Shown: positions 6,189-42,339, counted from the whole stretch's first letter. The stretch is DNA of 60,021 bases, filler included, from 9 parts of 9 records of this genome joined end to end with filler, not necessarily neighbours in it; one strand, 5' to 3'. Program-made: numbers and translations. The notes: a model not told the origin generated them from the sequence alone.

Positions 6189-6189
6189 A

Positions 6190-8249: not shown

Positions 8250-8426
8250 TCACTTTTCCTTGCGAACACCCTTGAATGGGGCTTCGTCCGAAGTCTTGAC
8301 ATCAATGAATTGCCCTGTCGTGGTATCCCGCTTGACCCAATGGCCCGTCTTGGGATTTCGAACCTGGGAACGCTGTTTGACGGCCCCTTTACGAGAGCCG
8401 TCACCTGTTGGTTTGTTTGTAGCCAT
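8250..8426 (-). CDS. Small basic hypothetical protein, 58 aa
   Basis: MATNKPTGDGSRKGAVKQRSQVRNPKTGHWVKRDTTTGQFIDVKTSDEAPFKGVRKEK; internal duplicated R[ND]xxTG[HQ][WF] motif. Confidence 0.8.
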   Translation of the reverse strand: MATNKPTGDGSRKGAVKQRSQVRNPKTGHWVKRDTTTGQFIDVKTSDEAPFKGVRKEK

Positions 8427-8479
8427 AATTTGATATCTTGCTTTGTTCATATTTTGCGGTTGATCCGCCTACCTTATTA

Positions 8480-8539
8480 TATGCTGAGAAGAGCCAGGTT
8501 TTTACCATCGGTGGTCAAAAAAAGAGTATTGTTAGCATA
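8480..8539. promoter_or_regulatory. Dyad-symmetric divergent control region
   Basis: TATGCTGA (8480-8487)/TTAGCATA (8532-8539) and TTTTTACCA-TCGG-TGGTCAAAA share the centre 8509.5. Confidence 0.5.
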
Positions 8540-8553
8540 GGAACTATTGAGAC

Positions 8554-9168: not shown

Positions 9169-9578
9169 AGAATGAAAGCTTGATGTCCAAAATTGCCCGA
9201 GCTGCTGAAGAACAGATTAAAGAGGATGTGGAAGCGGCGAACCAGATACTTCGAGATACAGGTTCTGATCCAGATGAAATCGTAGCCAACGGGAAGAAAC
9301 TGATCAAGAGGCTCGAATTGCAAGCCAAGGCAAGAATCAACCGAGAGCGAGCACAGCAACACCGAGAGGAAGTTGAGTTAGGTGTCAGAAATTACGTATT
9401 AAATTTGATGAGTAAATCGATTGAAGAGCTTCTGGAAGTCATGCGGAGGGATAGGTTGGCTGTTGGATACCGAAGCCTCATCAATGCTCCAGATAAGCGG
9501 CAAATTATTGAAGCGTTGAGTGAGCGAGAGCGGATCAGACTGAACGAACAATACCAACAAGATAATCCCGAAAATTGA
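9165..9578 (+). CDS. All-helical hypothetical protein, candidate anti-sigma and peptidase substrate
   Basis: ATGA overlap with the sigma gene and TGATG overlap with the peptidase gene; no HTH or TM evident; function inferred from position only. Confidence 0.65.
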   Translation: MKNESLMSKIARAAEEQIKEDVEAANQILRDTGSDPDEIVANGKKLIKRLELQAKARINRERAQQHREEVELGVRNYVLNLMSKSIEELLEVMRRDRLAVGYRSLINAPDKRQIIEALSERERIRLNEQYQQDNPEN

Positions 9579-10381
9579 TGATAAATGTAGGAGCTTTGGC
9601 GGCCAGAAGAGTTCTTGAGGAGCATGGAATAGATGATCCCACAAATTTTCCGCTTGAAGACTTAGTCGAAGGTCTGGGGGCTCTTCTACAGTTTGTTCCC
9701 ATGAATAACTGTGATGGTCGGATAGTCTTCGGAGATCAGGGATGCCTGATATCAATAAACTCAGGAATTGAGTTTGAAGGGCGTCGACGTTTTACTCTTG
9801 CCCATGAATTAGGGCACTTTGTGATGCATCGGGCGTTGTTCGAACATCACAATGATACCGAAAGTACGATGAGTTGGTTCGATTCACGAGTCAATCAATT
9901 GCAAAGGGGAAGGCAGGAGCAGGAGGCAAATGAGTTTGCCTCAGAATTGTTAATGCCTGAGAGGTTGTTTAAGGGAGAGTGTTCAAAAGAGAAGTTTTCG
10001 CCAGACATAATTAGAAGGCTGTCGGAAAAGTTTCAGACGAGTAAAACATCAGCTGCCTTTCGTTATGTTGAGCATGGCAATCATCCAATCTGTATCCTTC
10101 ATTGCCACAATGGTAGAGTGAAGTACTATAAAAAATCTCGCGACTTTCTTCCCTATCCTGGTGGAATCGTCCGATTAGCCACGCCTGAATTGTCCGTTGC
10201 CGCTGAATTCTTTAGAGACGGGATCTGGTACACAGGCGATCAAGCGAAACAGTCTATCCAAAAGTCAACATGGTTTGAGTTGTCTGAAGGCGAAAACGAA
10301 GACCGGTATGACTATTACGAATACTGCATCATTACTCCGAAATACGACACGGTGTTAAGTGTTGTTTGGGATGAGTCGTAA
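9578..10381 (+). CDS. ImmA/IrrE family Zn metallo-endopeptidase (M78-like)
   Basis: RRRFTLAHELGHFVMH (HExxH) and EQEANEFASELLMP; HTH-like IIRRLSEKFQTSKTSAAFR; further C-terminal domain. Confidence 0.93.
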   Translation: MINVGALAARRVLEEHGIDDPTNFPLEDLVEGLGALLQFVPMNNCDGRIVFGDQGCLISINSGIEFEGRRRFTLAHELGHFVMHRALFEHHNDTESTMSWFDSRVNQLQRGRQEQEANEFASELLMPERLFKGECSKEKFSPDIIRRLSEKFQTSKTSAAFRYVEHGNHPICILHCHNGRVKYYKKSRDFLPYPGGIVRLATPELSVAAEFFRDGIWYTGDQAKQSIQKSTWFELSEGENEDRYDYYEYCIITPKYDTVLSVVWDES

Positions 10382-10457
10382 CGGTCGGAAATAGGGTACT
10401 GTGATGGTATAGAATTCCCTTCTGAGCCAGCATTGGGGAGTTTTGGCCGCTCCTTTA

Positions 10458-10805
10458 CTATTTTTTGTTTTTCTCATCCTGTATGATCAGTTCTTGTATC
10501 GAATCTGCCTTATGATTATTTGCTATGTCGTTTTCCAGGTTGAATTCTGAAATGAGGTTCTCTAGCGAATCGGTTTTGAGTTCTAATGTAGACACTTGTT
10601 CGTCTAATGATTTCGTAATCTCGTTCAAAGCAAGTACATTGTTTGCCAAGGCAGTGCCGGCTAGGCTTAACACGATCGCAATTCCAATGCCGTACTTAAA
10701 CTTCACTTCCAGACTGTGTAACTGTTCCGCAAAATCAAGGTTGTCTTGTAATTCCGAATAGACAATATCCCTTAGTTCACTTTTCTCATTGTCACTGAGT
10801 GCCAT
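10458..10805 (-). CDS. Hypothetical protein, single TM plus coiled coil
   Basis: TM YGIGIAIVLSLAGTALA followed by a heptad-rich tail. Confidence 0.6.
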   Translation of the reverse strand: MALSDNEKSELRDIVYSELQDNLDFAEQLHSLEVKFKYGIGIAIVLSLAGTALANNVLALNEITKSLDEQVSTLELKTDSLENLISEFNLENDIANNHKADSIQELIIQDEKNKK

Positions 10806-10944
10806 GTCAATCTTCCAGTTAATTGATCATTCAGTTCGCTATTCTTTGGAGTGCCGAATAGAAACTCAAAAATTGATTCATTGATTCAGTCGCAAAAAGA
10901 ATCATGGTTTTTCTTCAAGTGTTCTGACAACACTACTACAATGA

Positions 10945-10971
10945 CAAGTGGGGTCCATTAACCCCCACTTG
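10945..10971 (-). terminator. Hairpin downstream of 10996-11658
   Basis: CAAGTGGGG...CCCCACTTG 9-bp stem. Confidence 0.45.
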
Positions 10972-10995
10972 CGACATTAAAGTTTGATTGATTCG

Positions 10996-11658
10996 TCACT
11001 TCGTCACTTTAGAGGCTACGCAGCTTGCTAAAGAGCCAAAGTCCAATATTGTTGACACGAAAGGGATTGTCGGTATTAACTCTTTCCGTCTGTGCTTTGG
11101 TTTGCCCCTGTTGTCGTTTTTAATCCTTTTGTTCTGCTGTTTGATATTCTTATTGTACTGTTTAATTAGCGACGAAAATTTGTTTTTAACCGCATTTGCA
11201 AATGCGATTGTGGAGTTGTACCTCTGTCCACTTACTGTGGATCTTAACGCCTCGTAAATGAGGCTTGCGATAATCGCATTGTCGATCAAATTATTAATTT
11301 GCCCCTCAGCGTAGCACGCAAGCGTTGCCGTTGCGTAGTTGGCAATGATGCCGTCGCGAGAGTTACTAAGACCGTGTAGGTATTGGATTAGAGCTTTCTT
11401 TGTATTGTTATTTGGATTTTGAACCTTCGAGAATATTTCTCCTTCCTGATAGAGGTGAGTTAAACAATGTCTGAAGGGAGTTGATTCGCCATTGGTTGCA
11501 AACGAGGAAAAGACTTCTATCTCACGCTCCAAAGTGACTTCTGGTTCTTCAAGAGTTATTTGTAATGGAGAAATGGGTGAGTTATTTGCCATAGATGGAG
11601 TTACATGAACGGCAAGTGATAACCCGAAAGTCAAAATCAGTTGTAGAAATTTTCGCAT
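10996..11658 (-). CDS. Secreted hypothetical protein
   Basis: Signal peptide MRKFLQLILTFGLSLAVHVTPSMA; AAGGAAGG RBS upstream; basic C-terminal segment. Confidence 0.7.
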   Translation of the reverse strand: MRKFLQLILTFGLSLAVHVTPSMANNSPISPLQITLEEPEVTLEREIEVFSSFATNGESTPFRHCLTHLYQEGEIFSKVQNPNNNTKKALIQYLHGLSNSRDGIIANYATATLACYAEGQINNLIDNAIIASLIYEALRSTVSGQRYNSTIAFANAVKNKFSSLIKQYNKNIKQQNKRIKNDNRGKPKHRRKELIPTIPFVSTILDFGSLASCVASKVTK

Positions 11659-12058
11659 AGAAACCTTCCTTGTATATGTTTAGAGCTAGGCCGCAAGGAA
11701 TCACCGAAATTCCCTTGATCGGGGAACCTCATGTATTTTTCAGCAGGTTTATTGACCTTAAAAAAGCAATCTTAATATAAAGCGAGTATGTCAAACGCAA
11801 ATTGTAATTGATTCTACCGAGGAAGGTATTTTAACTAAATGGTAACATATTTTAGTGAATTAGTAACATATTTGTAGGTCTTACTGCAAAGAGCGAGTCT
11901 TTGGAAGTACTACCAATAATTGCCTGAAGGTGATTAGGGGCAACTACCGGTAAAGATAGTAGATGATTCTTGCAGCGGAGTAGCATGTTTACTCGTAGAG
12001 CGAGTCTAACAGCGAAGAATCGATAAATTGTGCAATTTAATGATCTTGGCCCACCGCC

Positions 12059-12376
12059 CTAATCGTTGATGAGAATGTTCGACTGAGTATTGTCTAAGGG
12101 TACCACAACGTTTTCCTTCACTTCCAACTTCGATTTAAGCTCCATAATTGGCGACAATTTGAAGGTTCGATTCATCAAATCATCGAGTGTTGGCTTTTCC
12201 AGAAATATCAAGTCCCAGAAACCCTTTAAGTTGTCGTGGTCTTGCGAATCAAGTACCAATTCAGGGAGGTGTTCGACAAAATGGCGTGCATACTTTATAA
12301 CGGTATCAATATCCACCTCTTTGTATTCCTTTACCGTTCGGTCAGCTTCCATGACGTCTATATTGCCCCATCTCAC
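12059..12376 (-). pseudogene. Probable C-terminal remnant of a large serine recombinase
   Basis: VDIDTVIKYARHFVEHLPELVL...FWDLIFLEKPTLDDL...KLSPIMEL...VVPLDNTQSN resembles LSR C-terminal tails from memory; in-frame TAG upstream near the contig end. Confidence 0.4.
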
Positions 12377-12392
12377 GAAAATGACCGCCTAA

Positions 12393-12492
12393 NNNNNNNN
12401 NNNNNNNNNNNNNNNNNNNNNNNNNNNNNNNNNNNNTTAATTAATTAANNNNNNNNNNNNNNNNNNNNNNNNNNNNNNNNNNNNNNNNNNNN
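12393..12492. other. Artificial contig linker
   Basis: N44-TTAATTAATTAA-N44. Confidence 0.99.
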
Positions 12493-12729
12493 GGTGCGCC
12501 CAAAATTTACGACCTTCCCGTTAAACGGCTCTCACCGCCCGCTTAAGCCACATTACAGACCAATCTTAGAGTCCAAACCCAATCAGCTTAACACCCAACA
12601 AATTTTTTACGCACCGCCTTCTCTCAAATCCCCCCATCAGCCAGAATCTTAAACCAAAACACAAGAGACTCTCAGACCAGCACCCGCGTGCCTTCACACG
12701 CAGGTGCAAACCCCAAATACTTCATCAGC

Positions 12730-14715
12730 TCAGCGCACAAGCCCAAAACGCACAGTCTCAAGCTCGCCGGACCTAAACTCTATCCGCAAAACATACAGCC
12801 CCACAGCCAAACCATCAGTGTCAATCCGCAAAGACTCGCCCGCAGAACGAAAATGCGCCACCCGGCGCCCCAGCTGATCGTGCACATGCACCTGCGCGCC
12901 GGTCAGATTCGGATGCTCAATATTTAACATTTCCGTGCTGGGATTTGGGAAAACGCGCAACTGAAGACTCCCGTCTTCCTGACCTTCAACAGAACTGACA
13001 ACTGCCCCGACGCGGCTCGTAACTGTATTGCTGAGCAGCACCTCGGCTGCCGGCAGCGGCTGGTCAGGAACGGCAGCATATTCGAACTCAACCCGCACAT
13101 GGTTTTCCAGGTAATATCCATCGGGTAAGTCCGCGCGAAGCTGCGCAGATAAACGCAGGAAAGCCATGCCGCCCTGTCCGGCGGCATGTGCCGCTGCCAG
13201 GTTAACATTCTCAAACACAAACTCGGTCGCGCCGTCATCAGTCTGCTCAAACGTATACGGATGGCTGGCGGCCAACGGCGCCCAACTTCCATCAATAAAT
13301 CCTGCGTGGAACGGCACCGTAATGCGCATGGAACGTACCGGGCGCGCATCAAAGTTGTTAATATGCAGCATAAACTCCACTTCTTCATCGGCTTCCACGT
13401 TGCCACTCTGCGCGGCGTCGCGCTCACGCTTGAGGCGCGCGAGTCGTACCTGCTCCAGGTCTCCGACAATTGTTTGGCAGTATACGTCAGAGCCAATTTC
13501 GACTCCTCCGTTTGCCGTTATTGTCGCTTCGGCACACAGTTGATCACCCTGTAACAGCGGATCATTTGTTAACTGCATGTCAACAATAATTATCTTGCGT
13601 GCGCCGGGCTCCAGTTCAGCCAAATCCCAGACAGCAGAATTCGGTCCGCTGCTACTTGCCACAGGCCGCGTATTCTGCAAGCGCAGAACTTCATCAAAGT
13701 TAAAGTTTAACTGTCCGGAAAGCGGCCCGTTGGTCGGGTTGGTGACAAAAAGGCGATATTGCTGTAGCTTGCCCGGTCGCGCCGCATCCGCACCTACCAA
13801 AACAGCCGCCTGCCTACCTGGGGCGTCGACTCTGCGCAATGGAACATCTATGATGTCCGGCGCATCATCCCCAAACTCATATTCCACAGTACCCGCGCCG
13901 CAACTCAGCATCCAATCATTTGAGACCTCGGCAACCGTCAGTGACACACTATTTTCTCTGGTACTCAAATAACCGAAACCGTCTTGATTAAAACTTACCG
14001 TATTCTCAGGACTGCCATTTACATCGAGTGTCAGTGGCGTCACAGGTTTTTCACCTGCATCATAGCGGCAGTTAAGATTTTCGTCTTCAAACGCTCGAAT
14101 ACTGACAGCTCCACCGGAAAACTCAGTAATTTCATATTCAACGACTTTTACCTGAATTCCAATGCGCCGGGGGCTAAACCTTCCGACCAATTTAACAAAT
14201 TCAATACGCTCCAAACTCCAGTCATCGATATCTATTTCCGTTGGCGCTTCAAACTCATCGGCACCATAACATTCGCTATTTTCCCAGTACACCGAGAAGT
14301 TGGGATTTAGAAACGGAGCTTCTTCTTCGGCAAGGTAATTGTTTATCAGGCCCATCCACAGCCTGTTAAGGCATTGCCCATTTGTGCGCTCCACTTCCTC
14401 CACACCTTGACCGTTCACGGCAGGAGCACCAGACACATAGTCGATTTCAACTTCCTGATTCCACATCCGCACATCCATCAACAGCGTACGTGACGCACCT
14501 CCACCTTGTGAATCAAAGGTTTTCGGCAGCATTAACAGCTCGGCGGTGAAAACATCTCCACGTGCTACCCGATCCTGCATGATATTAAAACTGTCATCAA
14601 CACTCTCAACTTCACATTTTGCCGTTATCACTACGGCGCGCATTGCCCACAAGTCCTGTGAACTCCACACGGCGGTACAAACAACCAGCGCAATCGCCAG
14701 TGTTAATTGTCGCAT
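12730..14715 (-). CDS. T9SS type A sorting domain secreted protein (paralog 1)
   Basis: Signal peptide; FEDENLNCRYDAGE motif; DUF11-like Ig domains; CTD VFPNP...DQLGR...GLYVLRI. Confidence 0.85.
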   Translation of the reverse strand: MRQLTLAIALVVCTAVWSSQDLWAMRAVVITAKCEVESVDDSFNIMQDRVARGDVFTAELLMLPKTFDSQGGGASRTLLMDVRMWNQEVEIDYVSGAPAVNGQGVEEVERTNGQCLNRLWMGLINNYLAEEEAPFLNPNFSVYWENSECYGADEFEAPTEIDIDDWSLERIEFVKLVGRFSPRRIGIQVKVVEYEITEFSGGAVSIRAFEDENLNCRYDAGEKPVTPLTLDVNGSPENTVSFNQDGFGYLSTRENSVSLTVAEVSNDWMLSCGAGTVEYEFGDDAPDIIDVPLRRVDAPGRQAAVLVGADAARPGKLQQYRLFVTNPTNGPLSGQLNFNFDEVLRLQNTRPVASSSGPNSAVWDLAELEPGARKIIIVDMQLTNDPLLQGDQLCAEATITANGGVEIGSDVYCQTIVGDLEQVRLARLKRERDAAQSGNVEADEEVEFMLHINNFDARPVRSMRITVPFHAGFIDGSWAPLAASHPYTFEQTDDGATEFVFENVNLAAAHAAGQGGMAFLRLSAQLRADLPDGYYLENHVRVEFEYAAVPDQPLPAAEVLLSNTVTSRVGAVVSSVEGQEDGSLQLRVFPNPSTEMLNIEHPNLTGAQVHVHDQLGRRVAHFRSAGESLRIDTDGLAVGLYVLRIEFRSGELETVRFGLVR

Positions 14716-14857
14716 ACTATGTCCTTTTTCAAAAAATACTGAGTTGCCATCCAGGTGATCCTATATTGGAGGCTGGCGGCATGGTACAATTCGTGTAAAA
14801 TTTTCGGGCACTATTGCAGAAGTGTTAACAGTTGGATCACATGCTATTAACGATCTG

Positions 14858-14902
14858 CTTGAGCGCTTCGCCGTCATACTTCCGGCTTACTGTTTACTTT
14901 TG
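14858..14902. repeat. Conserved upstream motif, copy 1 (copy 2 at 17413-17469)
   Basis: Identical CTTGAGCGCTTCGCCG at 14858 and 17413, each followed by CCGGCTT[AG]CTGTTT. Confidence 0.75.
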
Positions 14903-15270
14903 CTGGTACATGATCCCAAAACTGCACGTCTCTGAGCCTGGCGCAAACTTTAGAGCCATCAAACCGACAGCCTGGCTCCAAGCTATGATCCGCGAACCCT
15001 CAATCTGCAAAAACAACAAATACTACACAAATGCAGACTCCCGCACCAACAACAAACAAAATAATCATACAGCCTGAGCCCCAAGCCAATCGCATTGTAA
15101 ATCAGCACGGAACGGATCAGCGCAGACGGGGGCTCAAAGCGTTCAAGCCACGTAGTACTCAATCGCCCAGCACAAAAACAGCCCACACCACATGTAGTAC
15201 AATACAGCAGTGCGGGCCAAAAAAATTCAGCCAATGCCACTAAATCATCAGCTCAAAATAAGCCAACAGC

Positions 15271-17253
15271 TCAGCGTACAACACCAAACCGCACAGTCTC
15301 AAGACCACCAGACTTAAACTCAATCCGTAGAACATAAAGACCTACAGCAAACGCATCGGTGTCAATCCGCAATGACGCACCCGCAGAATGAAAATGCGCC
15401 ACACGGCGCCCCAGCTGATCATGCACATGCACAATCGCTCCACCTAAATTCGGATGCTCAATGTTTAATCTCTCGCTGCTGGGATTGGGGAAGACCCGCA
15501 ACGCAACCTTGGCTGCATCCTGACTGTCCACGGAACTGACAACCGCGCCAACCCGGCTCGTAACAACATTGCTTAACAACCTTGTTGCTGACGGCAATTC
15601 CTGCCCCGGCTCCGCCTCGTATTCAAATACGACCTGCACATAGTTTTCGATGTAACGGCCGGAATTTAACCCCTGACGCATCTGGCCCGCCAAATGCATA
15701 AAAGCCGAACCACCCACAGCACCGTCTCCGGCCGGATCAAGATTGACACCCTCAAATACATACTCGATGCTGCCGTCAGCCAACTGCAAACTTCTGTATG
15801 CGTGGCTCGCAATTTCGGGTTTTAAAACACCACCTACGAAATCGTTATTATACGGAACCAATACACGCAGAGATTTCACGCTGCGTGACTCGCGATTGTT
15901 AACATGCAGAACAAAGGCAACATCTTCGCCGGCTTCGACTGTACTTTCCTGGGTATCGCGTTCGCGTTTAAGTCGCGAAAGCAGAATTTGATCCAAATGC
16001 CCAACGATTGTCTGGCAGAACTCGATTGTTTCGATTTCCTCACCACTTTCGGAAACAAGTGTGGCCCGGGCGCACAAGTCATCACCCTGCAACAAAGGGT
16101 CGTTTGTTAAGTGCATATCAACAAGAAATATCGTGCGCGCACCGGGTGCCAGGCTTTCAAGATCCCATACTATCGAGCTTCCACCCGTATTATCGGCCGC
16201 TGGTTTGGCGCCGTTAAGACTCAGAACATTGTCGTACTCAAATCTTAACTGCCCGTTTAACTCTGCGGTCGTTGGGTTGGAAACAAATACTCGGTACTGC
16301 ATCACAGTTCCAGGCCGCGTCGCGTCGGCACCAATCAATACTGCTTTTAGCGCTTCCTGGCTCTGAACTCTTTCCAATGGAATATTAATTACTTCAGTAG
16401 CGCCTTCGGTAAACTCATACTCTATGCTGCTCTGGCCACAACTAAGCTTCCAGTCCTTTGTATGCGCAGCAAGGCTCAGGGCAACCTTGTCTTTTCTGGT
16501 CTGCAGATAACCTATTCCGTCTGCATCAACAGATACAGTCACATTTGGATCATCGTTTACCTCCAGGGCAAGCGGTGTCACAGTTTCCTCACCTGGATCA
16601 TAACGACAGTTGAGGTTTCGGTCTTCAAAGGCTCGAACGTTAACTACCCCGCCCTGGAATTCAGTCACCTCGTACTCAAGCACAGTCGCCGTAAATCCAA
16701 TTTCATCCGGCTGAAACAGGCCTACACGAGTTGAAAAATCAATTGTCTGCATCTCCCAGTCATCAATATCCAGGTCCTGCGGCTGCTCAAATTCATCGTC
16801 ACCATAACACTCATTGTTACCCCAATCAATAATAAAAGTTGGAAGAGCGAATGGAGCGGACTCATTGGTAGAAACAATATTGACAAGTGCCATCCATAAC
16901 TCATTGCGGCATTGTCCATTTGCACGTTCGCGCTCGTTGACACCTTGTCCACTTATACTGGGTGAACCGGCCGCAAAGTCAATTTCTACGTTCTGATTCC
17001 ACATGCGCACATCAAACAGCATTGTTGGGCGCACGCTTGTACTAAACGGCATAAATGATTGCGGAAGAGTCCAAATTTCAACATCAAACTCATCACCAAT
17101 CATTACTTGACCGCGCATGAGATTTCTGTCGTCAACCACACTGACTACTTCACATTTTGCGCTGATAACAACCGCACGTGCCGCCAGCATTTTCTGTGGA
17201 ATAAACATCACGACACAAGCGGCCAGGACCAGAGTTAACATTAATTGTCGCAT
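15271..17253 (-). CDS. T9SS type A sorting domain secreted protein (paralog 2)
   Basis: Collinear with 12730-14715 (DVRMWNQ, TNDPLLQGD, LKRERD, near-identical CTD). Confidence 0.85.
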   Translation of the reverse strand: MRQLMLTLVLAACVVMFIPQKMLAARAVVISAKCEVVSVVDDRNLMRGQVMIGDEFDVEIWTLPQSFMPFSTSVRPTMLFDVRMWNQNVEIDFAAGSPSISGQGVNERERANGQCRNELWMALVNIVSTNESAPFALPTFIIDWGNNECYGDDEFEQPQDLDIDDWEMQTIDFSTRVGLFQPDEIGFTATVLEYEVTEFQGGVVNVRAFEDRNLNCRYDPGEETVTPLALEVNDDPNVTVSVDADGIGYLQTRKDKVALSLAAHTKDWKLSCGQSSIEYEFTEGATEVINIPLERVQSQEALKAVLIGADATRPGTVMQYRVFVSNPTTAELNGQLRFEYDNVLSLNGAKPAADNTGGSSIVWDLESLAPGARTIFLVDMHLTNDPLLQGDDLCARATLVSESGEEIETIEFCQTIVGHLDQILLSRLKRERDTQESTVEAGEDVAFVLHVNNRESRSVKSLRVLVPYNNDFVGGVLKPEIASHAYRSLQLADGSIEYVFEGVNLDPAGDGAVGGSAFMHLAGQMRQGLNSGRYIENYVQVVFEYEAEPGQELPSATRLLSNVVTSRVGAVVSSVDSQDAAKVALRVFPNPSSERLNIEHPNLGGAIVHVHDQLGRRVAHFHSAGASLRIDTDAFAVGLYVLRIEFKSGGLETVRFGVVR

Positions 17254-17674
17254 TTCATCTCCTATCTATCGGAATCAACTGTGCCCGTCAGGTGACCCTC
17301 TGTTCTAGACTGGTGGTACAAGCGTTTTCAATATCATATTTACGGTATCAAATTTTTGTTACGCACAGGCAAGGCTGCAATGGCAAAAACATGGCTGGGC
17401 GTTAAATACATACTTGAGCGCTTCGCCGGCCATTCTGGCATACTACTCCCGGCTTGCTGTTTCTTTTTGTTAGTTCTTGAGTCGGAAGACTTCAAGTCTT
17501 TGAGACTTCAGGCCACAAGATAGAAAATCTCCAACTGTTGAGCTTCTGTTTGAATCCAGGCGGAAACAATTAAGCAAACACTCCACATGTGCGGCACTCA
17601 CTTCGCAAGGCACTAAACAGATGCAGCACCCAGACCCAAACACAAACAAAACAATCAAAAAGCCTGAGACCCGA

Positions 17675-35440: not shown

Positions 35441-35474
35441 GCGAGAGTAGCTCAGTTGGTAGAGCGTCAGCCTT
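35441..35474 (+). tRNA. tRNA 5' half, probably tRNA-Gly(TCC), truncated by contig end
   Basis: GCGAGAG-TAGCTCAGTTGGTAGAGC-G-TCAGC-CTT: acceptor 5' strand, D-arm and anticodon stem; the anticodon itself is cut off. Confidence 0.85.
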
Positions 35475-35574
35475 NNNNNNNNNNNNNNNNNNNNNNNNNN
35501 NNNNNNNNNNNNNNNNNNTTAATTAATTAANNNNNNNNNNNNNNNNNNNNNNNNNNNNNNNNNNNNNNNNNNNN
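35475..35574. other. Artificial contig linker
   Basis: N44-TTAATTAATTAA-N44. Confidence 0.99.
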
Positions 35575-35575: not shown

Positions 35576-36208
35576 GTTGAACATGTTCAACTAATTGAAA
35601 AAGGTCTTATGGGAGCAGTATTTTTCTACCAAGCAACAAACGTATATTTTGGATCTGGCAAAATGGAAGTCGATAACTCAACTGCAGTGGATGCTTCAGC
35701 CGGTAAGTACTACACCACAATGGAACACCATTGGGATGAAGCCTTCGGATATTTTGGAGCCCCTATTGATTTTATTTCGAATACTGACAACCTAAGGTTT
35801 TGGGCTAAATATTCAAACAGCAGAAACGAAGAGTTGAATTGTAATGCGGTAATGATGAACGCCTTTTTAAAAGGAAGAACTGCAATCATTAATAATGATT
35901 ACGATACAAGAGATGAGCAAATTGCCGTTATCTCCGAGATGTGGGAAAAAATATCTGCCGCACAAGCCGTTGCGTATTTACAAGGCGCCAAAGATAATTT
36001 TGGATCTGATAATGCTAAATTCTTGCACGAATTATCAGAGGCTTACGCATTCATTCATTCTTTAAAATATGCTCCTAGTGGCGCAAAAATTACTCCTGCA
36101 CAAGTTGATGCAATCTTATCAACTCACATAGGGGCAGATTTTTGGGCGGTTACAACGATTGACCTAACGAATGCAATCAACGAAATTAATACCATTTACA
36201 ATTTCTAA
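35576..36208 (+). CDS. DUF4856-like protein, 5'-truncated
   Basis: Frame open from contig start; QLIEKGLMGA, YTTMEHHWDEAFGYFG, HELSEAYAF. Confidence 0.8.
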   Translation, partial: VEHVQLIEKGLMGAVFFYQATNVYFGSGKMEVDNSTAVDASAGKYYTTMEHHWDEAFGYFGAPIDFISNTDNLRFWAKYSNSRNEELNCNAVMMNAFLKGRTAIINNDYDTRDEQIAVISEMWEKISAAQAVAYLQGAKDNFGSDNAKFLHELSEAYAFIHSLKYAPSGAKITPAQVDAILSTHIGADFWAVTTIDLTNAINEINTIYNF

Positions 36209-36210
36209 AA

Positions 36211-37278
36211 ATGAAAATTCAGTATTCCATATTAGTTCTATTTCTAGCCCTAATTAGTTGCAAGAAAGATAAAGACAAAGTTGAATTTGATCGAGGGGCT
36301 ATGCTCAGCAACCTTTCTTCCAACGTTATTTTGCCGGCATTGTCTAATACAGAATCTGAATTTAATACTTTACACACTAAAGTCGAGACTTTTACATCAA
36401 ACCCAACAGAGGAGAACCTTTCCTCTGTTCGGTCTGGTTATGTTATGGCTTACAAAGCTTTTCAAACTTGCAAAATGTTTGACTTTGGACCTATGGCTGA
36501 TTATGGTATCACTGCGGCTACCAATACTTATCCAACCGACACGAGTAAAATTTTATCCAATATAAACTCTGGAACTTATAACCTTTCATCAGCAGAGAAT
36601 ATCACAGCCATAGGTTTACCAGCAATAGATTATTTGCTTTATAAAGCTTCATCAACTGAAATCATTCAAGACTTCACAAGTCATTCTTTGGCAAGTAATA
36701 GACAGGATTATTTATTAGATCTTTCTTTGAAGATGAAAACGGAATTCTCGACAATGACAGATCAATGGCAAAATTACTTGAACACTTTTAATGCTGCTGA
36801 CGGAAACGATATTGGAGGTTCCACGAGCATTTTATTCAACGCTTTTGTGATGGACATTGAATTATTGAAAAATGCCAAAGTTGGAATTCCGGCAGGTTTC
36901 CAAACCAGCGGTCAAACGCTTCCAACTTATGTTGAAGGATATTATTCTGGAATCTCTATCGATCTTGCCATTGAAAACTGCAATGCACTTCAAAACCTAT
37001 TCAACGGAGCAAACGGAATTTCATTTGATGATTACATTCGAGACGTTGAATCAGAAGACATTGAAGTTTCCCTATCTGATAACATTAACAATCAGTTTGA
37101 AACAATCAAAACCAAATTAACTGCCATTCAAAACCCACTATCAGATAAAGTCAATTCAAATCCTAATGCTGTAAGTGCAGCTTGGAACGAAATTAAAAAA
37201 CTGGTCACCTACGTTAAAACAGACATGTCCTCAATATTAGGACTGCTGATAACGTTCCAAGACAATGATGGAGATTAA
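36211..37278 (+). CDS. Imelysin (M75-like) family lipoprotein
   Basis: Lipobox LISC; GLPAIDYLL, KNAKVGIPAG, C-terminal DNDGD. Confidence 0.88.
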   Translation: MKIQYSILVLFLALISCKKDKDKVEFDRGAMLSNLSSNVILPALSNTESEFNTLHTKVETFTSNPTEENLSSVRSGYVMAYKAFQTCKMFDFGPMADYGITAATNTYPTDTSKILSNINSGTYNLSSAENITAIGLPAIDYLLYKASSTEIIQDFTSHSLASNRQDYLLDLSLKMKTEFSTMTDQWQNYLNTFNAADGNDIGGSTSILFNAFVMDIELLKNAKVGIPAGFQTSGQTLPTYVEGYYSGISIDLAIENCNALQNLFNGANGISFDDYIRDVESEDIEVSLSDNINNQFETIKTKLTAIQNPLSDKVNSNPNAVSAAWNEIKKLVTYVKTDMSSILGLLITFQDNDGD

Positions 37279-38635
37279 TCTCAATAGATTATCAAACACT
37301 TTATTCTCTCAACTGAGTGCTGCACCTATTGCTGTTTATAGAATAGGTTTTGGACTTCTCATGTTCATTTCTACCATTCGTTTCATTAGTAACGGTTGGG
37401 TAGAAAGTCAGTATTTAACTCCTACCTTTCACTTTAGATTTGAATTATTTGAACGGTTACCATACCCTTCTGAAATCGGTATTTGGTGTCTTTTTATCGC
37501 AATGCTCATTTCGGCCCTACTTATTACAGTTGGTTTATTTTATCGTTTTGCAACAATTCTTTTTTTTCTGTCTTTTACCTATGTTGAAATTCTCGACAAA
37601 ACCAATTATCTGAACCATTACTATTTCGTAAGCCTAGTTGCTTTTTTGCTCATTTTAATTCCTGCAAATCGATACTTTTCTTTAGACGCAAGGTTGGGAA
37701 TAACAAAACCTTCTTCAACATGCTCTTTATGGGAGATTAGAATCCTTCAATTTCAAATAGCTATCGTTTACTTTTACGCTGGCTTGGCAAAGTTAAACTA
37801 TGATTGGTTAATCCAAGCTCAACCTTTAAAATACTGGTTACATACAGCCAATCATTGGGCAATTTGGGGAGATTTATTAAAACAAAATTGGGTTGCTTAT
37901 CTATTCAGTTGGTTTGGTGCTTTCTATGACCTGTTTATTGTCATTTTCTTATTAATTCCTAAAACCAGACTCTTTGCTTATTTTTTCGTAATAGTATTTC
38001 ATATAGTTACTTGGATCTTATTTCCAATCGGTGTGTTTCCCTGGGTCATGATTGTGGCCACCCTCATTTTTTTTAATCCTTCTTTTCATGAAAAAATCCT
38101 TAATACGATTAGATCGATTTTTTTCCTTAAATCAATAAAAACAGAAGAAAGAGCTGGCAAAAAGAATAAATTAATCTTGCCTCTATTGGCATGTTACATG
38201 AGTTTTCAAATTCTTTTTCCCTTGAGATTTTTAATTTATGAAGGTCCAATATTCTGGACCGAAAGTGGATATAGGTTCAGTTGGAGAGTGATGCTCATGG
38301 AAAAAACTGGGTACGCAACTTTCTATATAATTGAGAATAATGTCGAGTTTGAAGTAAATAATGCAGACTTCTTAACTCCTAATCAAGAAAAGATGATGAG
38401 CACGCAGCCAGACATGATTCTACAGTATACACATTTTCTATCAAAAACCTTTAGCGATAGCTCATTCGCAAAATTTGGACATCAATTCCAATTTAATCAA
38501 CCAGAAGTGCACGCAGAAGTTTTTGTTACATTAAATTCGCGCCCGCATCAGCTATATGTGAATAAAAATCTTGATTTGACAACTATAAAATTATCAGATA
38601 AAAGAAATTGGCTTGAACCGTTTAAAGATGAATAA
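37265..38635 (+). CDS. HTTM domain / vitamin K-dependent gamma-carboxylase-like membrane protein
   Basis: YRIGFG, YLNHYY, VYFYAGLAKL..DW, FH....F.IGVFP, GYRFSWRVMLMEK, QPDMILQY. Confidence 0.9.
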   Translation: MMEINLNRLSNTLFSQLSAAPIAVYRIGFGLLMFISTIRFISNGWVESQYLTPTFHFRFELFERLPYPSEIGIWCLFIAMLISALLITVGLFYRFATILFFLSFTYVEILDKTNYLNHYYFVSLVAFLLILIPANRYFSLDARLGITKPSSTCSLWEIRILQFQIAIVYFYAGLAKLNYDWLIQAQPLKYWLHTANHWAIWGDLLKQNWVAYLFSWFGAFYDLFIVIFLLIPKTRLFAYFFVIVFHIVTWILFPIGVFPWVMIVATLIFFNPSFHEKILNTIRSIFFLKSIKTEERAGKKNKLILPLLACYMSFQILFPLRFLIYEGPIFWTESGYRFSWRVMLMEKTGYATFYIIENNVEFEVNNADFLTPNQEKMMSTQPDMILQYTHFLSKTFSDSSFAKFGHQFQFNQPEVHAEVFVTLNSRPHQLYVNKNLDLTTIKLSDKRNWLEPFKDE

Positions 38636-41030
38636 ATTAATTTTCATATTAACTTTTTTGGTTCAACTCCAATTATACGGTCAGTGTAATTTGTATGGCA
38701 CGCTCTATTCAAATACTGATAAAACCACTGTGCCTTATGCGAAAATAGTACTTAACGGAGAAGAAACCCAATTTACCCTTTCAGATGAATTTGGAAGATT
38801 CTATTTTGAAAATCTCTCTTGTCAATCATATCTATTGTCTGTCTCATCAATTGGGTTTGATAAATTATCAGAAGAAATTGAAATAACTGGAGACGAAACT
38901 GAATTAACAATTGAATTGATAGACACCATGCATCTTAAGGCTGTAACAGTATTTGCCAATTCTGATTTTGAATCACGTGGAATGAGAACAGTTGAAGAAA
39001 TGATACTGACTCATGGAAAGAAAACCCAGTTAATAGATATTTCGAAAATGGTTGCCAATCAATCGAGCAACAACGCACGAGAGCTATATGCATCAGTACC
39101 AGGTTTAAATATTTGGGAAAGTGATGCTGGGGGCCTTCAACTCGGAATAGGTGCAAGAGGCCTGAGTCCAAACCGTACTGCACATTTCAACACAAGACAA
39201 AATGGTTATGATATCTCTGCAGATGCTCTTGGTTACCCTGAAACTTACTACACTCCGCCTTCTGAAGCAATACAAGAAATTCAATTAATTCGAGGAGCTG
39301 CCTCACTTCAATTCGGCCCACAATTTGGAGGGATGTTAAATTTTCAATTAATTGAACCGTCTAAAAAAGCGTTTCAATATCAGGGACAACACTCCTATGG
39401 AGGATATAACATGATAAACTCTTTTAATTCCGTATCAGGAACTTTAAAGAAAAAATTCTCATACCTCGCTTACTACAAATACAAAAAAGGAAATGGATGG
39501 CGCGACAATTCTAAATTTAACCAACACAACGCATTTGCCCAGTTAAAATACAAATTCAATGAAAATCTGTCTTTGCTCACAGAATTTACTTTCATGTCTT
39601 ATCTTGCACAACAAGCAGGAGGATTGACAGACGCTATGTTCAATCAAAATCCTCGTCAATCAATCAGAAGCAGAAACTGGTTCAAAGTTATCTGGAATTT
39701 AATGGCGGCAAATTTACATTGGGACATTAGCAGAAGTTCAAAACTGGATCTAAAAGTCTATAAAGTTATAGCGAGCCGAGAAGCACTAGGAAATCTAGAT
39801 AAAATTACGCGTCTTGATGATTTTCTTAATAGAGATTTGATCTCTGGTCAATTCGATAACCTTGGAGCTGAATTAAGATTCTTAAAACACTACCCAATTG
39901 GCAAAAAATTAAAAGGTAGTCTCGTAGCTGGAGTTAGATATTATCAAGGGCAAACAACTTCAAAACAAGGATTAGCAGATGCTGAAACTGGACCTAACTT
40001 CAGTTTTATTAATCCAGATAATTTAGAGGGTTCTAGTTATATTTTCCCTTCAAACAATTATTCAATTTTTGGTGAAAACATGTTGAGACTATCAAAAAAA
40101 CTGTGGGTTTCAGCAGGATTAAGGTATGAATACATAGAAACTGAAGCTCAAGGCACTTACCGCGAAATGGTTTTTCATCCATTAACGAATGAATTATTAT
40201 TTGACTCCACTTACAGTGAAACTAAAAAATCCAAGCGAAGTATCTTTTTAGGTGGTTTAGGCATTACGTATCGATTATCGGATAAATCAGAAATCTACTC
40301 CAATATCGCTCAAAACTACCGAGGAATTAATTTTTCGGATATTAGAATTAACAACCCCAATCAACAGGTGGACGAGAACATTCAAGATGAAAAAGGCTTC
40401 AACGCTGACCTAGGAATTAGAGGAAACAAAAAGAACTTCCAATTCGATCTTAGCGGATTCTTCCTCTATTACGATAATAAAATTGGAGTCATCAATAAAA
40501 AACTTAACGATTTTGAATTTGTTAGATATAGAACCAATATCGGTACAGCATACAGTACTGGACTTGAACTATTTGCTGAATATCAATTTAAGAAATCAGA
40601 CAGCTCAAAAATATACTCCTCTGCCTTTATTAATGGATCTTACGTTTATGCAAAATACGGCAAAACTGATGAGTCTGCTTATGAAGGAAACGATATAGAG
40701 CTGGTTCCTCCATTTACAATTAAAGCTGGATACAAATTGTTTGTAAAAAAATGGACATTCTCATATTTGGTGAGTTATGTGCAACAACACTATACAGATG
40801 GTACCAATGCAGAGTTTGACCCTAATGCAGTTGCCGGAATAATACCATCTTATTATGTAATGGATTTCGGAACGAAACTAGAACTAAACAAGTATTTAAC
40901 TTTTAAAGGAGGGGTAAACAATCTAACAAATAATCAATACTTTACTAGAAGAGCTTCTGCTTATCCGGGACCTGGAATCATCCCATCAGATGGCATAAAT
41001 TTTTATGTCACCCTTCAGCTTACTTTATAA
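38628..41030 (+). CDS. TonB-dependent receptor, FecA-like
   Basis: N-terminal carboxypeptidase-regulatory-like domain; plug RGLSPNR, YPETYYTP, RGAASLQFGPQFGG; C-terminal NNLTN..YFTRR. Confidence 0.93.
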   Translation: MNKLIFILTFLVQLQLYGQCNLYGTLYSNTDKTTVPYAKIVLNGEETQFTLSDEFGRFYFENLSCQSYLLSVSSIGFDKLSEEIEITGDETELTIELIDTMHLKAVTVFANSDFESRGMRTVEEMILTHGKKTQLIDISKMVANQSSNNARELYASVPGLNIWESDAGGLQLGIGARGLSPNRTAHFNTRQNGYDISADALGYPETYYTPPSEAIQEIQLIRGAASLQFGPQFGGMLNFQLIEPSKKAFQYQGQHSYGGYNMINSFNSVSGTLKKKFSYLAYYKYKKGNGWRDNSKFNQHNAFAQLKYKFNENLSLLTEFTFMSYLAQQAGGLTDAMFNQNPRQSIRSRNWFKVIWNLMAANLHWDISRSSKLDLKVYKVIASREALGNLDKITRLDDFLNRDLISGQFDNLGAELRFLKHYPIGKKLKGSLVAGVRYYQGQTTSKQGLADAETGPNFSFINPDNLEGSSYIFPSNNYSIFGENMLRLSKKLWVSAGLRYEYIETEAQGTYREMVFHPLTNELLFDSTYSETKKSKRSIFLGGLGITYRLSDKSEIYSNIAQNYRGINFSDIRINNPNQQVDENIQDEKGFNADLGIRGNKKNFQFDLSGFFLYYDNKIGVINKKLNDFEFVRYRTNIGTAYSTGLELFAEYQFKKSDSSKIYSSAFINGSYVYAKYGKTDESAYEGNDIELVPPFTIKAGYKLFVKKWTFSYLVSYVQQHYTDGTNAEFDPNAVAGIIPSYYVMDFGTKLELNKYLTFKGGVNNLTNNQYFTRRASAYPGPGIIPSDGINFYVTLQLTL

Positions 41031-42225
41031 ATTTAAAAGAGAAATCATACGCTTTAGAGTTTAAGATATATGCTCCTTTTTTAAGATTTTCAACATGGAT
41101 TTTCCCGTTAAGGTTGACATTGCTAAAATCTAGAACGATCTTACCGCTTAAATCATAAACCTTAAAGTCATTCACGCCATTTGGAAAATCTTCAAGTACA
41201 ATTATTTGATCTGTATCATTATAAAATGCAGTTGGCACTAAAACTTTCTCATCAATTCCATTAAAGGAGCTTTGCACCTCTATCTCCATATAAACAGGTA
41301 AATGATCAGACATATCATGCAAATCCTGAATAATATTTGATGGTAAAGTCGTGTTTACTGGCGCATCAGTTAAAGCTGAATTAAAATGATTTCCATCCTG
41401 CCCATACGCCCAATACGTTCCATCAATATATTTTGCCTGAGCTCCCCAATTCAATAAATCTGGTGAAATAAAAATAAAATCAAATCGATCATCCATTCCT
41501 CCAGTTGCACCGTTATCCAATGACACGGTTCTGGTAGATTGAGTGTGAACATCCGCATAACCCCAGTCATTATGCCATGCGCCTGGTGTATTGATTGGAT
41601 CCTTTAACTCCACTCCTGCTCCATTTAACACAGTGTTCCAGGCGGGTTCAGAACTAGTATAAAGATTAAAATCACCTCCAAGTACCACATTCTCAATAGT
41701 TGAACGTGTCGCCATATAATTTTTCAAATCTTCGGCCATATCATTTCTTTGAGTTGAATCTGATTGTCCAGCCTTTAAATGACACATGTACATGTAAAAA
41801 AAAGTAGTATCAGTTGTTGTAGCAAGGTCTGAGCTCTTATAATAGAGTACGTATTCATTAATATCTCTTAAATCAGTTGAAATTATATTTTGCTCATACA
41901 TTTCAAGTTTAGTAGTATTGAAATAAAGCATGTTTTCTGTATCTGTTCCAGGAGTATAATTAGACTTTTCATAATAGGTTATTCCGTTTTGATTTAGAGC
42001 ATCATTTAATACAGCATTTGCACCAGATGAACTTGTCAATTCACAAACCATCAAAACATCCGGCAATTCATGCTGAACAATATTTTTTAAGAGCGTTATC
42101 CTGCCCGCATTTTCAAAAGGAAACTTCAACAGATTGTAAGCCATAACACTAATAGTGTCAGTTGATTGGGCCTGAACACCACTCAAAGTAATGCCCAGTA
42201 ATAATAATAATGTCAGTCTTTTCAT
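41020..42225 (-). CDS. Endonuclease/exonuclease/phosphatase family protein with T9SS CTD
   Basis: YNLL, HLKAG, GDFN, DRFDFI, SDHLPV; CTD YDLSGK...GAYIL. Confidence 0.9.
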   Translation of the reverse strand: MKRLTLLLLLGITLSGVQAQSTDTISVMAYNLLKFPFENAGRITLLKNIVQHELPDVLMVCELTSSSGANAVLNDALNQNGITYYEKSNYTPGTDTENMLYFNTTKLEMYEQNIISTDLRDINEYVLYYKSSDLATTTDTTFFYMYMCHLKAGQSDSTQRNDMAEDLKNYMATRSTIENVVLGGDFNLYTSSEPAWNTVLNGAGVELKDPINTPGAWHNDWGYADVHTQSTRTVSLDNGATGGMDDRFDFIFISPDLLNWGAQAKYIDGTYWAYGQDGNHFNSALTDAPVNTTLPSNIIQDLHDMSDHLPVYMEIEVQSSFNGIDEKVLVPTAFYNDTDQIIVLEDFPNGVNDFKVYDLSGKIVLDFSNVNLNGKIHVENLKKGAYILNSKAYDFSFKFIK

Positions 42226-42339
42226 TAGTATAAATATACCTAAAGCCACACTATTCTGTGCTTTTTCACGTTTAGATATTATTAACAATCCTTAAGAAAG
42301 AATATTTAGAAGAAATTCTCCTAATTAAAGAATTGACAC

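Follow-up and report, generated by a model that had tools for sequence, protein, structure and literature searches.

The DNA analyzed here (the window, 60,021 nucleotides) consists of nine contigs joined by N44-TTAATTAATTAA-N44 linkers, and the region of interest comprises four genes on the + strand that abut or overlap. These encode a DUF4856 lipoprotein, an imelysin-like lipoprotein, a membrane enzyme of the HTTM family resembling the human vitamin-K-dependent carboxylase GGCX, and a TonB-dependent receptor. The following features were identified:

35475–35574 (no strand), assembly linker forming the boundary of the contig that holds the cluster; not biological sequence.
35576–36208 (+), 3′ part of a DUF4856 lipoprotein gene, cut by the contig end (ORF 35609–36208, frame open back to 35576), with the conserved MEHHWDEAFGYFG and H..LSEA motifs.
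36211–37278 (+), imelysin-like lipoprotein of the "DGD-tail" subfamily, 355 aa, lipobox Cys17.
37249–37275 (+), codons for the C-terminal tail ITFQDNDGD of the imelysin, a candidate metal-binding, docking or modification site.
37265–38635 (+), GGCX-like HTTM membrane enzyme, 456 aa, with nine predicted transmembrane helices and a small β-rich periplasmic domain.
37790–37792 (+), codon of Lys176, the counterpart of the human GGCX catalytic base Lys218.
38613–41030 (+), TonB-dependent outer-membrane receptor (CarboxypepD_reg, Plug, 22-strand-type barrel), 805 aa from the longest ORF.

The junctions between the genes are a 2-nt gap, a 14-nt overlap and a 23-nt overlap, which leaves no room for a small precursor gene. 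The observation of this gene cluster made in the preliminary description was confirmed, and every motif it listed is present in the translations: NYLNHYYF, VYFYAGLAKLNYDW and GYRFSW in the HTTM protein, the FQDNDGD end of the imelysin and MEHHWDEAFGYFG in the DUF4856 protein. As one linker ends at 35574, the DUF4856 gene is truncated and the promoter is missing from the window. A public contig 97% identical to the window (L001) carries the whole 378-aa DUF4856 lipoprotein gene (position 49–1185, 98% identical), with a lipobox Cys, and 48 nt upstream of it.

Pfam searches assigned all four proteins to families. The 3′ part of the DUF4856 gene matched DUF4856 with 131.3 bits (cut-off 22.3; E 5.4e-38), covering only profile positions 145–357 of 358. 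The residues H219, D222, E223 and E323 are invariant in 68 DUF4856 sequences. No solved relative of this protein was found by sequence or fold, and structural comparison returned only generic four-helix-bundle matches (Z at most 9.2). The second protein matched Peptidase_M75 (imelysin) over residues 41–322 with 100.6 bits (cut-off 23.5; E 1.5e-28) and PDB entry 3n8u with an E-value of 3.8e-07. The GxHxxE motif of imelysins (Xu et al., 2011, PMC3143127) was not recovered, as no histidine is found among the invariant or nearly invariant columns of 77 aligned sequences. The receptor matched the TonB receptor barrel (E 6.2e-34) with Plug and CarboxypepD_reg domains. It could not be assigned to a named siderophore, FecA or haem receptor equivalog, since the best NCBIfam hits, including siderophore and FecA models, were all below their cut-offs (for example TonB-siderophor, 110 bits against 223.5).

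The third protein matched the HTTM domain with 261 bits (cut-off 27.7; E 1.6e-77) and VKGC_lumenal_dom with 151.7 bits (cut-off 27.7; E 1.9e-44), and human GGCX by sequence with an E-value of 3.9e-37. An AF2 model (pLDDT 93.4) matched solved GGCX in Foldseek (E 3.6e-21, TMq 0.80–0.85). Structural superposition (VIA) placed model residues 2–456 on GGCX chain residues 42–508 with a Z-score of 33.2 and an rmsd of 3.1 Å over 437 residues, at about 25–26% identity; the next non-GGCX chain has a Z-score of 7.6. The predicted fold thus corresponds to the nine-helix transmembrane domain plus the first part of the lumenal domain of human GGCX.

We next compared residues with known roles in human GGCX (10.1101/2025.02.09.637231; PMC12647623) across 80 orthologues. 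The counterparts of N159, H160, K218, W223, D263, F286, H287, F299, W399 and M402 are invariant in 80 of 80 sequences. The catalytic base Lys218 and its relay Asp263, which deprotonate vitamin-K hydroquinone, correspond to K176 and D222, and K176 is also invariant in 87 of 87 sequences of a further alignment. Of the residues lining the naphthoquinone and CO2 pockets (H160, W223, F286, F294, F299, M401, and M402 in human), H118, W181, F245, F258, and M343 are invariant, F253 is kept in 77 of 80, and M401 is Val in 80 of 80. In the Glu pocket, N117 and H118, the counterparts of N159 and H160 that hydrogen-bond the substrate carboxylate, are invariant, but N158 is L, R436 is Q/M and L394 is G. 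Position 395 is Y in the window but F in 48, Y in 31 and M in 1 of the 80 sequences, so that the Y395 hydroxyl is not generally kept. In addition, K217 is changed to A and Y425 to N, and the C99–C450 disulfide is absent. The protein ends at human residue 508, so the rest of the lumenal bipartite propeptide clamp and the C-terminal domain (residues 603–758; PMC12647623) have no counterpart.

The arrangement of the cluster is far beyond chance. Order and strand are the same in all 80 closest loci (L001–L080) wherever the contig reaches: DUF4856 is present in 76 of 80, the imelysin in 80 of 80 and the receptor in 77 of 80, and all misses are at contig ends. No other flanking family occurs in more than 11 of the 80 loci. 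The imelysin stop overlaps the HTTM start in 54 of 80 loci. The cluster was found in 54 of 301 sampled Bacteroidota genomes, where 54 of the 75 strong HTTM places have an imelysin gene directly upstream on the same strand. Comparison by hand of the DUF4856 and HTTM positions showed that 36 of 41 DUF4856-bearing genomes have DUF4856 about 2 kb upstream of an HTTM gene.

Several lines of evidence link the cluster to iron. A Fur-box-like site, with at most 3 mismatches to ATTTAGAATNATTCTAAAT, precedes the operon in 67 of 73 relatives, against 15 of 323 control upstream regions. In L001 such a box lies between a TACATTTG element and the start codon; these are sequence matches only. In a published transcriptome of Riemerella anatipestifer, RAYM_09779–RAYM_09794 carry the same four annotations in the same order (TonB-dependent receptor, "vitamin K-dependent gamma-carboxylase," imelysin lipoprotein, hypothetical protein) and are induced by iron limitation and in a fur mutant (Guo et al., 2017, PMC5609570, Table 4). 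This evidence is a transcriptome table without functional study, and orthology to the genes described here rests on names and order. Literature searches for a described mechanism yielded only this paper.

The HTTM-linked imelysins form a separate subfamily, which is new here, whose most conserved feature is the C-terminal ...D-x-D-G-D tail. D353, G354, and D355, as well as the lipobox C17, are invariant in 77 of 77 sequences, and 79 of 80 ORFs in L001–L080 end in DGD. The tail is absent from 17 of 17 classical imelysins, which score much higher on Pfam M75 and lie next to a gene of about 460 aa ending ER[DE]xLxxFLxSL, called DHOR (di-haem oxidoreductase) by Pfam in locus L093. Such classical pairs lie beside or near the HTTM cluster in loci L093, L103, L107, and L110. 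In one genome (G174) the tail-type imelysin and a cluster-type HTTM are both present though unlinked. In three clusters (L081, L130, and L132), DUF4856, a DGD-tail imelysin and the receptor occur in the same order, but a membrane di-iron hydroxylase-family gene (FA_hydroxylase, PF04116) stands beside the cluster and no HTTM match was found in the genome. The DGD tail stays invariant in these clusters, and therefore has a function that does not need HTTM. Following the lipobox Cys, which is invariant in both lipoproteins, 56 of 77 imelysins and 19 of 68 DUF4856 proteins have at least two D/E at positions +2 to +6, as compared with a K-(D/E)-rich surface-export consensus reported for Bacteroidota lipoproteins (Lauber et al., 2016).

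The preliminary description had placed the cluster in iron uptake, noted that the HTTM protein can be aligned to GGCX including the catalytic lysine, expected a wide spread in Bacteroidota without a described mechanism, and proposed either menaquinone-dependent carboxylation of acidic partner proteins, at the imelysin DNDGD tail or an acidic region of the DUF4856 protein, to build a metal-capture site, or a quinone-linked metal reductase. This interpretation is partly supported. Co-occurrence across Bacteroidota and structural alignment to GGCX, both named beforehand as checks, came out in its favor, and the tail to which it pointed proved to mark the HTTM-linked subfamily. Carboxylation and reductase activity both remain hypothetical, however, and several observations argue against a canonical vitamin-K cycle and GGCX-style substrate docking. 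VKOR, the enzyme that recycles the epoxide made by each GGCX turnover, was found by Pfam in only 5 of the 54 cluster genomes, against 44 of the other 247, the docking regions and residues listed above are missing or changed, and the DGD tail persists in the three clusters whose genomes have no HTTM match. Its mention of a Leptospira enzyme as epoxidase-only was not encountered in the literature consulted, whereas MloH, the malonomycin carboxylase of Streptomyces and a bacterial GGCX orthologue, is described as an aspartyl carboxylase (PMC12647623).

What the analysis itself establishes is an operon-like unit conserved as a block in Bacteroidota, preceded in relatives by a Fur-box-like operator, with the same-named genes of R. 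anatipestifer induced by iron limitation and by loss of Fur, and encoding two lipoproteins, a TonB-dependent receptor, and an inner-membrane protein with the predicted fold of human GGCX and the counterparts of its residues that deprotonate vitamin-K hydroquinone (K218, D263), line the naphthoquinone and CO2 pockets (H160, W223, F286, F294, F299, M402) and hydrogen-bond the substrate carboxylate (N159, H160). The remainder is inference, including any enzymatic activity. In this view the receptor and the two lipoproteins capture and import iron at the outer membrane, with the imelysin carrying a surface-export-like K-(D/E) signal after its lipid-anchor Cys. The HTTM protein would have its active site on the periplasmic face, as GGCX faces the ER lumen, and would be an active menaquinol- and O2-dependent enzyme that modifies the co-encoded exported imelysin as it passes the inner membrane. 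The modification would most likely be carboxylation of acidic residues, with the ...I-T-[YF]-x-D-x-D-G-D tail as the prime candidate site, and would strengthen a metal-binding site. We consider it very likely that this is an iron-regulated uptake operon with a GGCX-type enzyme, catalytically competent as judged from sequence and predicted structure, as a fixed member. That the enzyme modifies a partner protein is tentative (probability about 0.35), and that the DGD tail is the site is unlikely on present evidence. The tight pairing with one imelysin subfamily and the MloH precedent for Asp rather than Glu chemistry are in favor of modification. On the other hand, the catalytic core is equally kept in 7 of 7 paralogous Bacteroidota HTTM proteins from unrelated contexts, and its conservation therefore does not tie the chemistry to iron.

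Other explanations were considered. The HTTM protein could be a redox partner, being to this imelysin what EfeB is to EfeO in EfeUOB, or what the di-haem oxidoreductase is to classical imelysins, and might use deprotonated menaquinol to reduce Fe(III) so that Fe(II) can go on to FeoB, the DGD tail being only a metal-binding or hand-off element. Every imelysin examined sits beside an oxidoreductase-type gene (DHOR-type, HTTM or, in three loci, FA_hydroxylase), the operon has no inner-membrane transporter and HTTM is its only inner-membrane protein, the quinol-handling residues are the best conserved, and the scarcity of VKOR fits chemistry that makes no epoxide. However, no GGCX-family member is known to pass electrons to a metal, and a plain reductase would not need the invariant CO2-stacking F299 and carboxylate-binding N159/H160, although these are also kept in paralogues. 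If the imelysin is surface-exposed, as inferred, it cannot meet an inner-membrane enzyme after export. We regard this reading as doubtful, though less so than the following two.

Alternatively, HTTM might carboxylate or oxygenate a low-molecular-weight compound, a membrane lipid or a quinone that then serves iron capture, as MloH acts on a natural-product intermediate. The missing propeptide clamp, needed for protein docking in GGCX, is consistent with this, as is the FA_hydroxylase of the variant clusters, which would act on the same pool, FA_hydroxylase-family enzymes acting on lipids. As no biosynthetic gene is conserved beside the four genes and the pairing is with an imelysin subfamily rather than any metabolite gene, this appears unlikely. 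Least likely is that HTTM is a general envelope or lipoprotein maturation factor, or an inactive scaffold, that merely travels with the operon. Paralogous HTTM genes do occur in unrelated contexts in the same phylum, for example beside ribF and serS, but 54 of 54 cluster-type genes lie directly after an imelysin gene, the same-named genes are co-regulated in R. anatipestifer, and active-site residues are invariant over sequences only 41–63% identical to the window's protein.

Among related systems, human GGCX differs from the HTTM protein in the regions and residues given above, and the present cluster contains no Gla-domain or propeptide substrate, lacks VKOR in most host genomes and sits in an apparent Fur-type iron operon. 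MloH, which we did not compare by sequence, belongs to a natural-product pathway and has no imelysin, receptor or iron context. Classical imelysin systems (imelysin with DHOR/DUF1111; EfeUOB) likewise pair an imelysin-fold lipoprotein or periplasmic protein with an oxidoreductase under iron control, but there the partner is a soluble haem protein rather than a quinol-dependent membrane enzyme. The HTTM-DCC1 and DUF5819 pair of Firmicutes (bioRxiv 10.64898/2026.08.19.745780) has another architecture and another partner, and no iron context. The fixed presence of a GGCX look-alike with its catalytic residues intact in a very probable iron-starvation gene cluster for outer-membrane iron uptake in many Bacteroidota gives the unknown bacterial role of this enzyme family a concrete, testable setting.

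The region holds four open reading frames on the + strand, separated by +2, -14 and -23 nt. Together with two flanking features, they are as follows:

35441-35474 (+), the 5' half of a tRNA gene, cut off by the end of the preceding contig
35609-36208 (+), the 3' part of a DUF4856 gene, with its frame open from 35576 (Pfam E 5.4e-38, profile positions 145-357 of 358)
36211-37278 (+), an imelysin (Peptidase_M75) gene (Pfam E 1.5e-28)
37265-38635 (+), an HTTM gene (Pfam HTTM, E 1.6e-77; VKGC lumenal domain, E 1.9e-44)
38613-41030 (+), a TonB-dependent receptor gene with CarboxypepD_reg, Plug and barrel domains
41020-42288 (-), a gene for a T9SS-sorted Exo_endo_phos (nuclease/phosphatase-fold) protein

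The four-gene arrangement given in the preliminary description is confirmed, and all the motifs that it listed are present in the translations. NCBIfam gives none of the four proteins a name above its cut-offs. The preliminary description could not take into account that the window (1-60021) consists of nine contigs joined by N44-TTAATTAATTAA-N44 linkers, one of which ends at 35574. As a consequence, the DUF4856 gene is incomplete, the promoter is not in the window, and the genes upstream of 35475 belong to another contig and say nothing about this cluster. Gene neighborhood across a linker means nothing, and as the first three pieces (1-17674) have a [G + C] content of 40-52% and the rest of about 29-39%, the record may mix organisms. 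A public MAG contig that is 97% identical (L001) carries the complete gene for the 378-aa DUF4856 protein with a lipoprotein signal, plus 48 nt upstream. The partial tRNA gene matches positions 1-33 of 71 of the Rfam tRNA model with an E-value of 0.0028, below the gathering score, and ARAGORN finds no tRNA in the window. The Exo_endo_phos gene converges on the receptor gene and overlaps its end by 11 nt; an ORF of matching size and position follows the receptor in one of the related loci (L005), but the family is not conserved across the 80 related loci described below. The spacing leaves no room for a small precursor-peptide gene inside the operon, and predicted internal promoters or terminators were not above shuffled expectation.

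By sequence, the HTTM protein matches only human GGCX among solved structures (E 3.9e-37), with query residues 10-453 aligned to residues 52-505 in full-length numbering. An AlphaFold2 model built on 87 orthologues has a mean pLDDT of 93.4 and shows nine long helices followed by a beta-rich domain. Using this model, Foldseek finds 16 GGCX chains (E 3.6e-21 to 1.7e-12), with a TM-score of 0.80-0.85 on the query for ranks 1-14, and nothing else better than E 0.09. Structural superposition with VIA-align gives a Z of 33.2 and an rmsd of 3.1 A over 437 residues, with model residues 2-456 on chain residues 42-508, whereas the best non-GGCX chain has a Z of 7.6.

We mapped the residues to which two structural studies assign roles in catalysis (10.1101/2025.02.09.637231; PMC12647623) by counting positions by hand in the sequence alignment with human GGCX; at every counted position the human letter agreed with the residue named in these studies. 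In the window's protein and 79 orthologues, the counterparts of N159, H160, K218 (Lys176 here), W223, D263, F286, H287, F299, W399, and M402 are invariant, and those of V210, A214, G259, F294, and W390 are nearly invariant. Changed positions are K217 (to A/S), N158 (to L), W157 (to Y), M401 (to V), L394 (to G), H404 (to M/I), R436 (to Q/M), Y425 (to N), and both cysteines of the C99-C450 pair. Y395 is Y in the window, but F in 48, Y in 31 and M in 1 of 80. The quinol-deprotonation site, the CO2 pocket and the carboxylate-binding pair N159/H160 are therefore intact, whereas the residues that hold the substrate backbone and the propeptide are not, and everything after residue 508, including the CTD (603-758; PMC12647623), is absent. 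Conservation of catalytic residues in bacterial orthologues has already been stated, from an alignment that includes the flavobacterium Kordia algicida (PMC12647623). Seven paralogous Bacteroidota HTTM proteins from unrelated gene contexts keep the same core, which is thus a family property; the cluster type differs from these paralogues at position 395 (Y/F against H/Q) and position 401 (V against M).

To determine the conservation of the cluster, genome contigs were scanned, which matched at least 600 stretches. Of these 600, 489 encode relatives, and the best 80 (L001-L080), at 45-97% identity, were kept. Most of these are assigned to Flavobacteriales (Crocinitomicaceae, Fluviicola, Brumimicrobium, Cryomorpha), Cytophagales, and Chitinophagales, which are aerobic lineages. 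In all 80 loci the order DUF4856, imelysin, HTTM, receptor is kept on one strand wherever the contig reaches, with DUF4856 in 76 of 80, imelysin in 80 of 80 and the receptor in 77 of 80; every miss lies at a contig end. No other flanking gene family is shared by more than 11 of the 80 loci, so the unit is these four genes and there is no fifth conserved member.

In an even sample of 301 genomes of the phylum, HTTM matched in 77 genomes, 72 of them over the cut-off. We took the 75 places with E <= 1.1e-54 (62 genomes) and left out the 29 weaker rows; 54 of the 75, in 54 genomes, have an imelysin gene directly upstream on the same strand. DUF4856 matched in 41 genomes, and in 36 of them it lies about 2 kb upstream of an HTTM gene, as judged by comparing the two lists of positions by hand. 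A profile built from the 80 loci also finds diverged DUF4856 genes in further clusters that Pfam missed (loci L087-L092). The 21 other strong HTTM places are paralogues in other contexts, one of which lies at a contig start. Among these contexts is a second clade of Bacteroidota HTTM proteins (L094:7989-9317, L095:7998-9311, L100:7506-8813), about 30-33% identical to the window's protein and with the same catalytic core. Its genes lie directly after ribF (FAD synthetase/riboflavin kinase) and, in L094 and L095, before serS, based on the ORF maps of all three loci and a Pfam search of the L094 neighbors only.

As the window lacks the promoter, regulation was assessed in the relatives. The 200 nt before DUF4856 hold a palindrome matching ATTTAGAATNATTCTAAAT with at most 3 mismatches in 67 of 73 loci, compared to 15 of 323 upstream regions of other long ORFs in the same loci. 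The consensus was written from the Fur boxes in Table 5 of PMC5609570 and from k-mers. In L001, such a putative box lies between a TACATTTG element and the start codon. Directly 3' of the Fur-box-like palindrome, an inverted repeat AATACC-N8-GGTATT(GT) is found in 48 of 73 loci (among L003-L080, for example L014, L025, and L031), but not in the window. It overlaps what looks like the -33 TTG of a Bacteroidota promoter; about 60 sites occur in the 1.14 Mb of these loci, 48 of them at this one position, and it could be the site of a second regulator. The cluster is annotated in databases and appears in one transcriptome table (PMC5609570), in which the four same-named genes of Riemerella anatipestifer (RAYM_09779-RAYM_09794) are up under iron limitation and in a fur mutant, although the equivalence of the genes listed there to this cluster rests on names and order. 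Literature searches found no other paper that joins these terms; in the literature searched, no mechanism for the cluster is in print and no paper mentions DUF4856.

The imelysins encoded before HTTM are only 28-57% identical to the window's protein, yet their most conserved segment is the extreme C-terminus, G-[VL]-L-I-T-[YF]-Q-D-N-D-G-D. The last three residues, D-G-D, are invariant in 77 of 77 aligned sequences, and 79 of 80 ORFs in L001-L080 end in DGD, the exception being a shortened ORF. In more distant, higher-GC clusters the tail reads IT[YF]SSGDGD. This subfamily has no conserved His, and so lacks the GxHxxE motif that defines classical imelysins (PMC3143127). The 17 classical imelysins that we examined in the same genomes (loci L093 and L101-L116) all lack the tail and sit next to a ~460-aa gene with a shared C-terminal motif, identified by Pfam in L093 as a di-haem oxidoreductase (DHOR). 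Such pairs often lie within a few kb of the HTTM cluster (L093:1420-5271, L103:7144-9814, L107:12653-15266, L110:7130-9795), so that two imelysin systems are physically grouped; L093 also has a CCP_MauG gene. In one of the sampled genomes (G174), the tail-type imelysin has moved behind such a pair, and a cluster-type HTTM stands alone elsewhere in the genome.

Three clusters (L081, L130, and L132) have DUF4856, tail-type imelysin and receptor but no HTTM, and HTTM was not found in those three genomes. A gene of the FA_hydroxylase family of membrane di-iron proteins lies beside them (Pfam PF04116 for L081, with homologues in the others). Six further homologues of that hydroxylase were not next to such a cluster within about 7 kb. 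In L081 (10866-14455), a second TonB-dependent receptor and a PepSY_TM membrane protein lie divergently next to the FA_hydroxylase gene.

Both lipoproteins have an invariant lipobox Cys. After that Cys, 56 of 77 imelysins have at least two D/E at +2..+6, typically K-(K/D)-D-x-(D/E), whereas only 19 of 68 DUF4856 proteins do; the pattern resembles the Bacteroidota surface-export signal reportedly described by Lauber et al. (2016). DUF4856 has invariant H219, D222, E223, and E323 in the motifs MEHHWDEAFGYFG and H..LSEA. The DUF4856 proteins (L001:49-1185; residues about 22-45 of the alignment) begin, after the lipobox, with a short Cys-bracketed module G-C-T-D-x-x-A-x-N-Y-...-D-D-G-S-C, which is modeled with lower confidence than the rest. 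The structural model of DUF4856 is otherwise confident (pLDDT 95) but has no specific solved relative: Foldseek found nothing at E <= 0.001, and a broad VIA search gave only generic four-helix bundles (Z <= 9.2) over residues 184-378. We considered whether DUF4856 could be a hidden imelysin, but in an hhalign comparison its profile matched that of the HTTM-linked imelysins only over the signal peptide and first helix (probability 82%), so that such a relationship is not shown, though not excluded.

Taken together, our analysis establishes an iron-regulated operon unit, as judged from relatives, a GGCX-type enzyme with an intact quinol/CO2 site, and the obligate pairing of this enzyme with one imelysin subfamily. 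What these proteins do is inferred from sequence and predicted structure. The receptor and lipoproteins would capture and import iron. The HTTM enzyme would face the periplasm as GGCX faces the ER lumen, use menaquinol and O2, and modify the exported imelysin in transit, most likely by carboxylating acidic residues, with the tail as the first candidate site. MloH, described as an aspartyl carboxylase (PMC12647623), is a precedent for Asp. The interpretation offered in the preliminary description is thus supported in part: the iron-uptake context and the active-site conservation are supported, while the proposed carboxylation of acidic partner proteins remains a hypothesis, with a sharper candidate site than before. 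We put modification of the imelysin at a probability of about 0.35, and consider the tail as its site unlikely on present evidence.

The invariant CO2-stacking Phe and the imelysin leader, which looks like a surface-export signal, count for carboxylation. Against it count the missing propeptide clamp, the retention of the tail without HTTM, and the rarity of VKOR, which is found in 5 of 54 cluster genomes against 44 of the other 247, so that its co-occurrence offers no support for a vitamin-K cycle. The main rival, which we also regard as unlikely but not far behind, is that HTTM is the redox partner of the imelysin, interchangeable with DHOR or the di-iron hydroxylase, in which case the tail would be only a metal-binding or docking element. 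In a more far-reaching and improbable version of the carboxylation model, the enzyme carboxylates Asp (or Glu) residues of the invariant ...D-x-D-G-D tail while the imelysin lipoprotein crosses the inner membrane. This would give a surface lipoprotein a malonate-type Fe(III)-chelating claw, in effect a protein-borne siderophore that hands iron to the TonB-dependent receptor. In the HTTM-less variants, the membrane di-iron hydroxylase would then install a different chelating group, such as a hydroxyl, on the same tail. If true, this would be the first protein substrate and physiological role for a bacterial vitamin-K-type carboxylase.

Imelysin-type iron systems with a redox or O2-dependent partner are already known; what differs here is that the partner is a GGCX-like enzyme and that the imelysin belongs to a distinct, tail-marked subfamily. 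The imelysin module appears with interchangeable O2- or redox-active partners: a di-haem oxidoreductase, a di-iron membrane hydroxylase, or a quinol-dependent GGCX-like enzyme. For the long-standing question of what bacterial orthologues of the vitamin-K-dependent carboxylase do, the cluster provides a testable setting, as one clade of them is a fixed and, as judged from relatives, iron-regulated member of a four-gene outer-membrane uptake operon present in about a sixth of sampled Bacteroidota, with an obligate neighbor, the distinct imelysin subfamily, that carries an invariant acidic C-terminal tail. This narrows the search to a few candidate substrates, a regulatory condition (iron starvation) and a clear mutant (Lys176), so that the question becomes directly testable by mass spectrometry and uptake assays. 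If carboxylation is confirmed, it would extend Gla-type metal-binding chemistry from animal blood clotting to bacterial iron acquisition.
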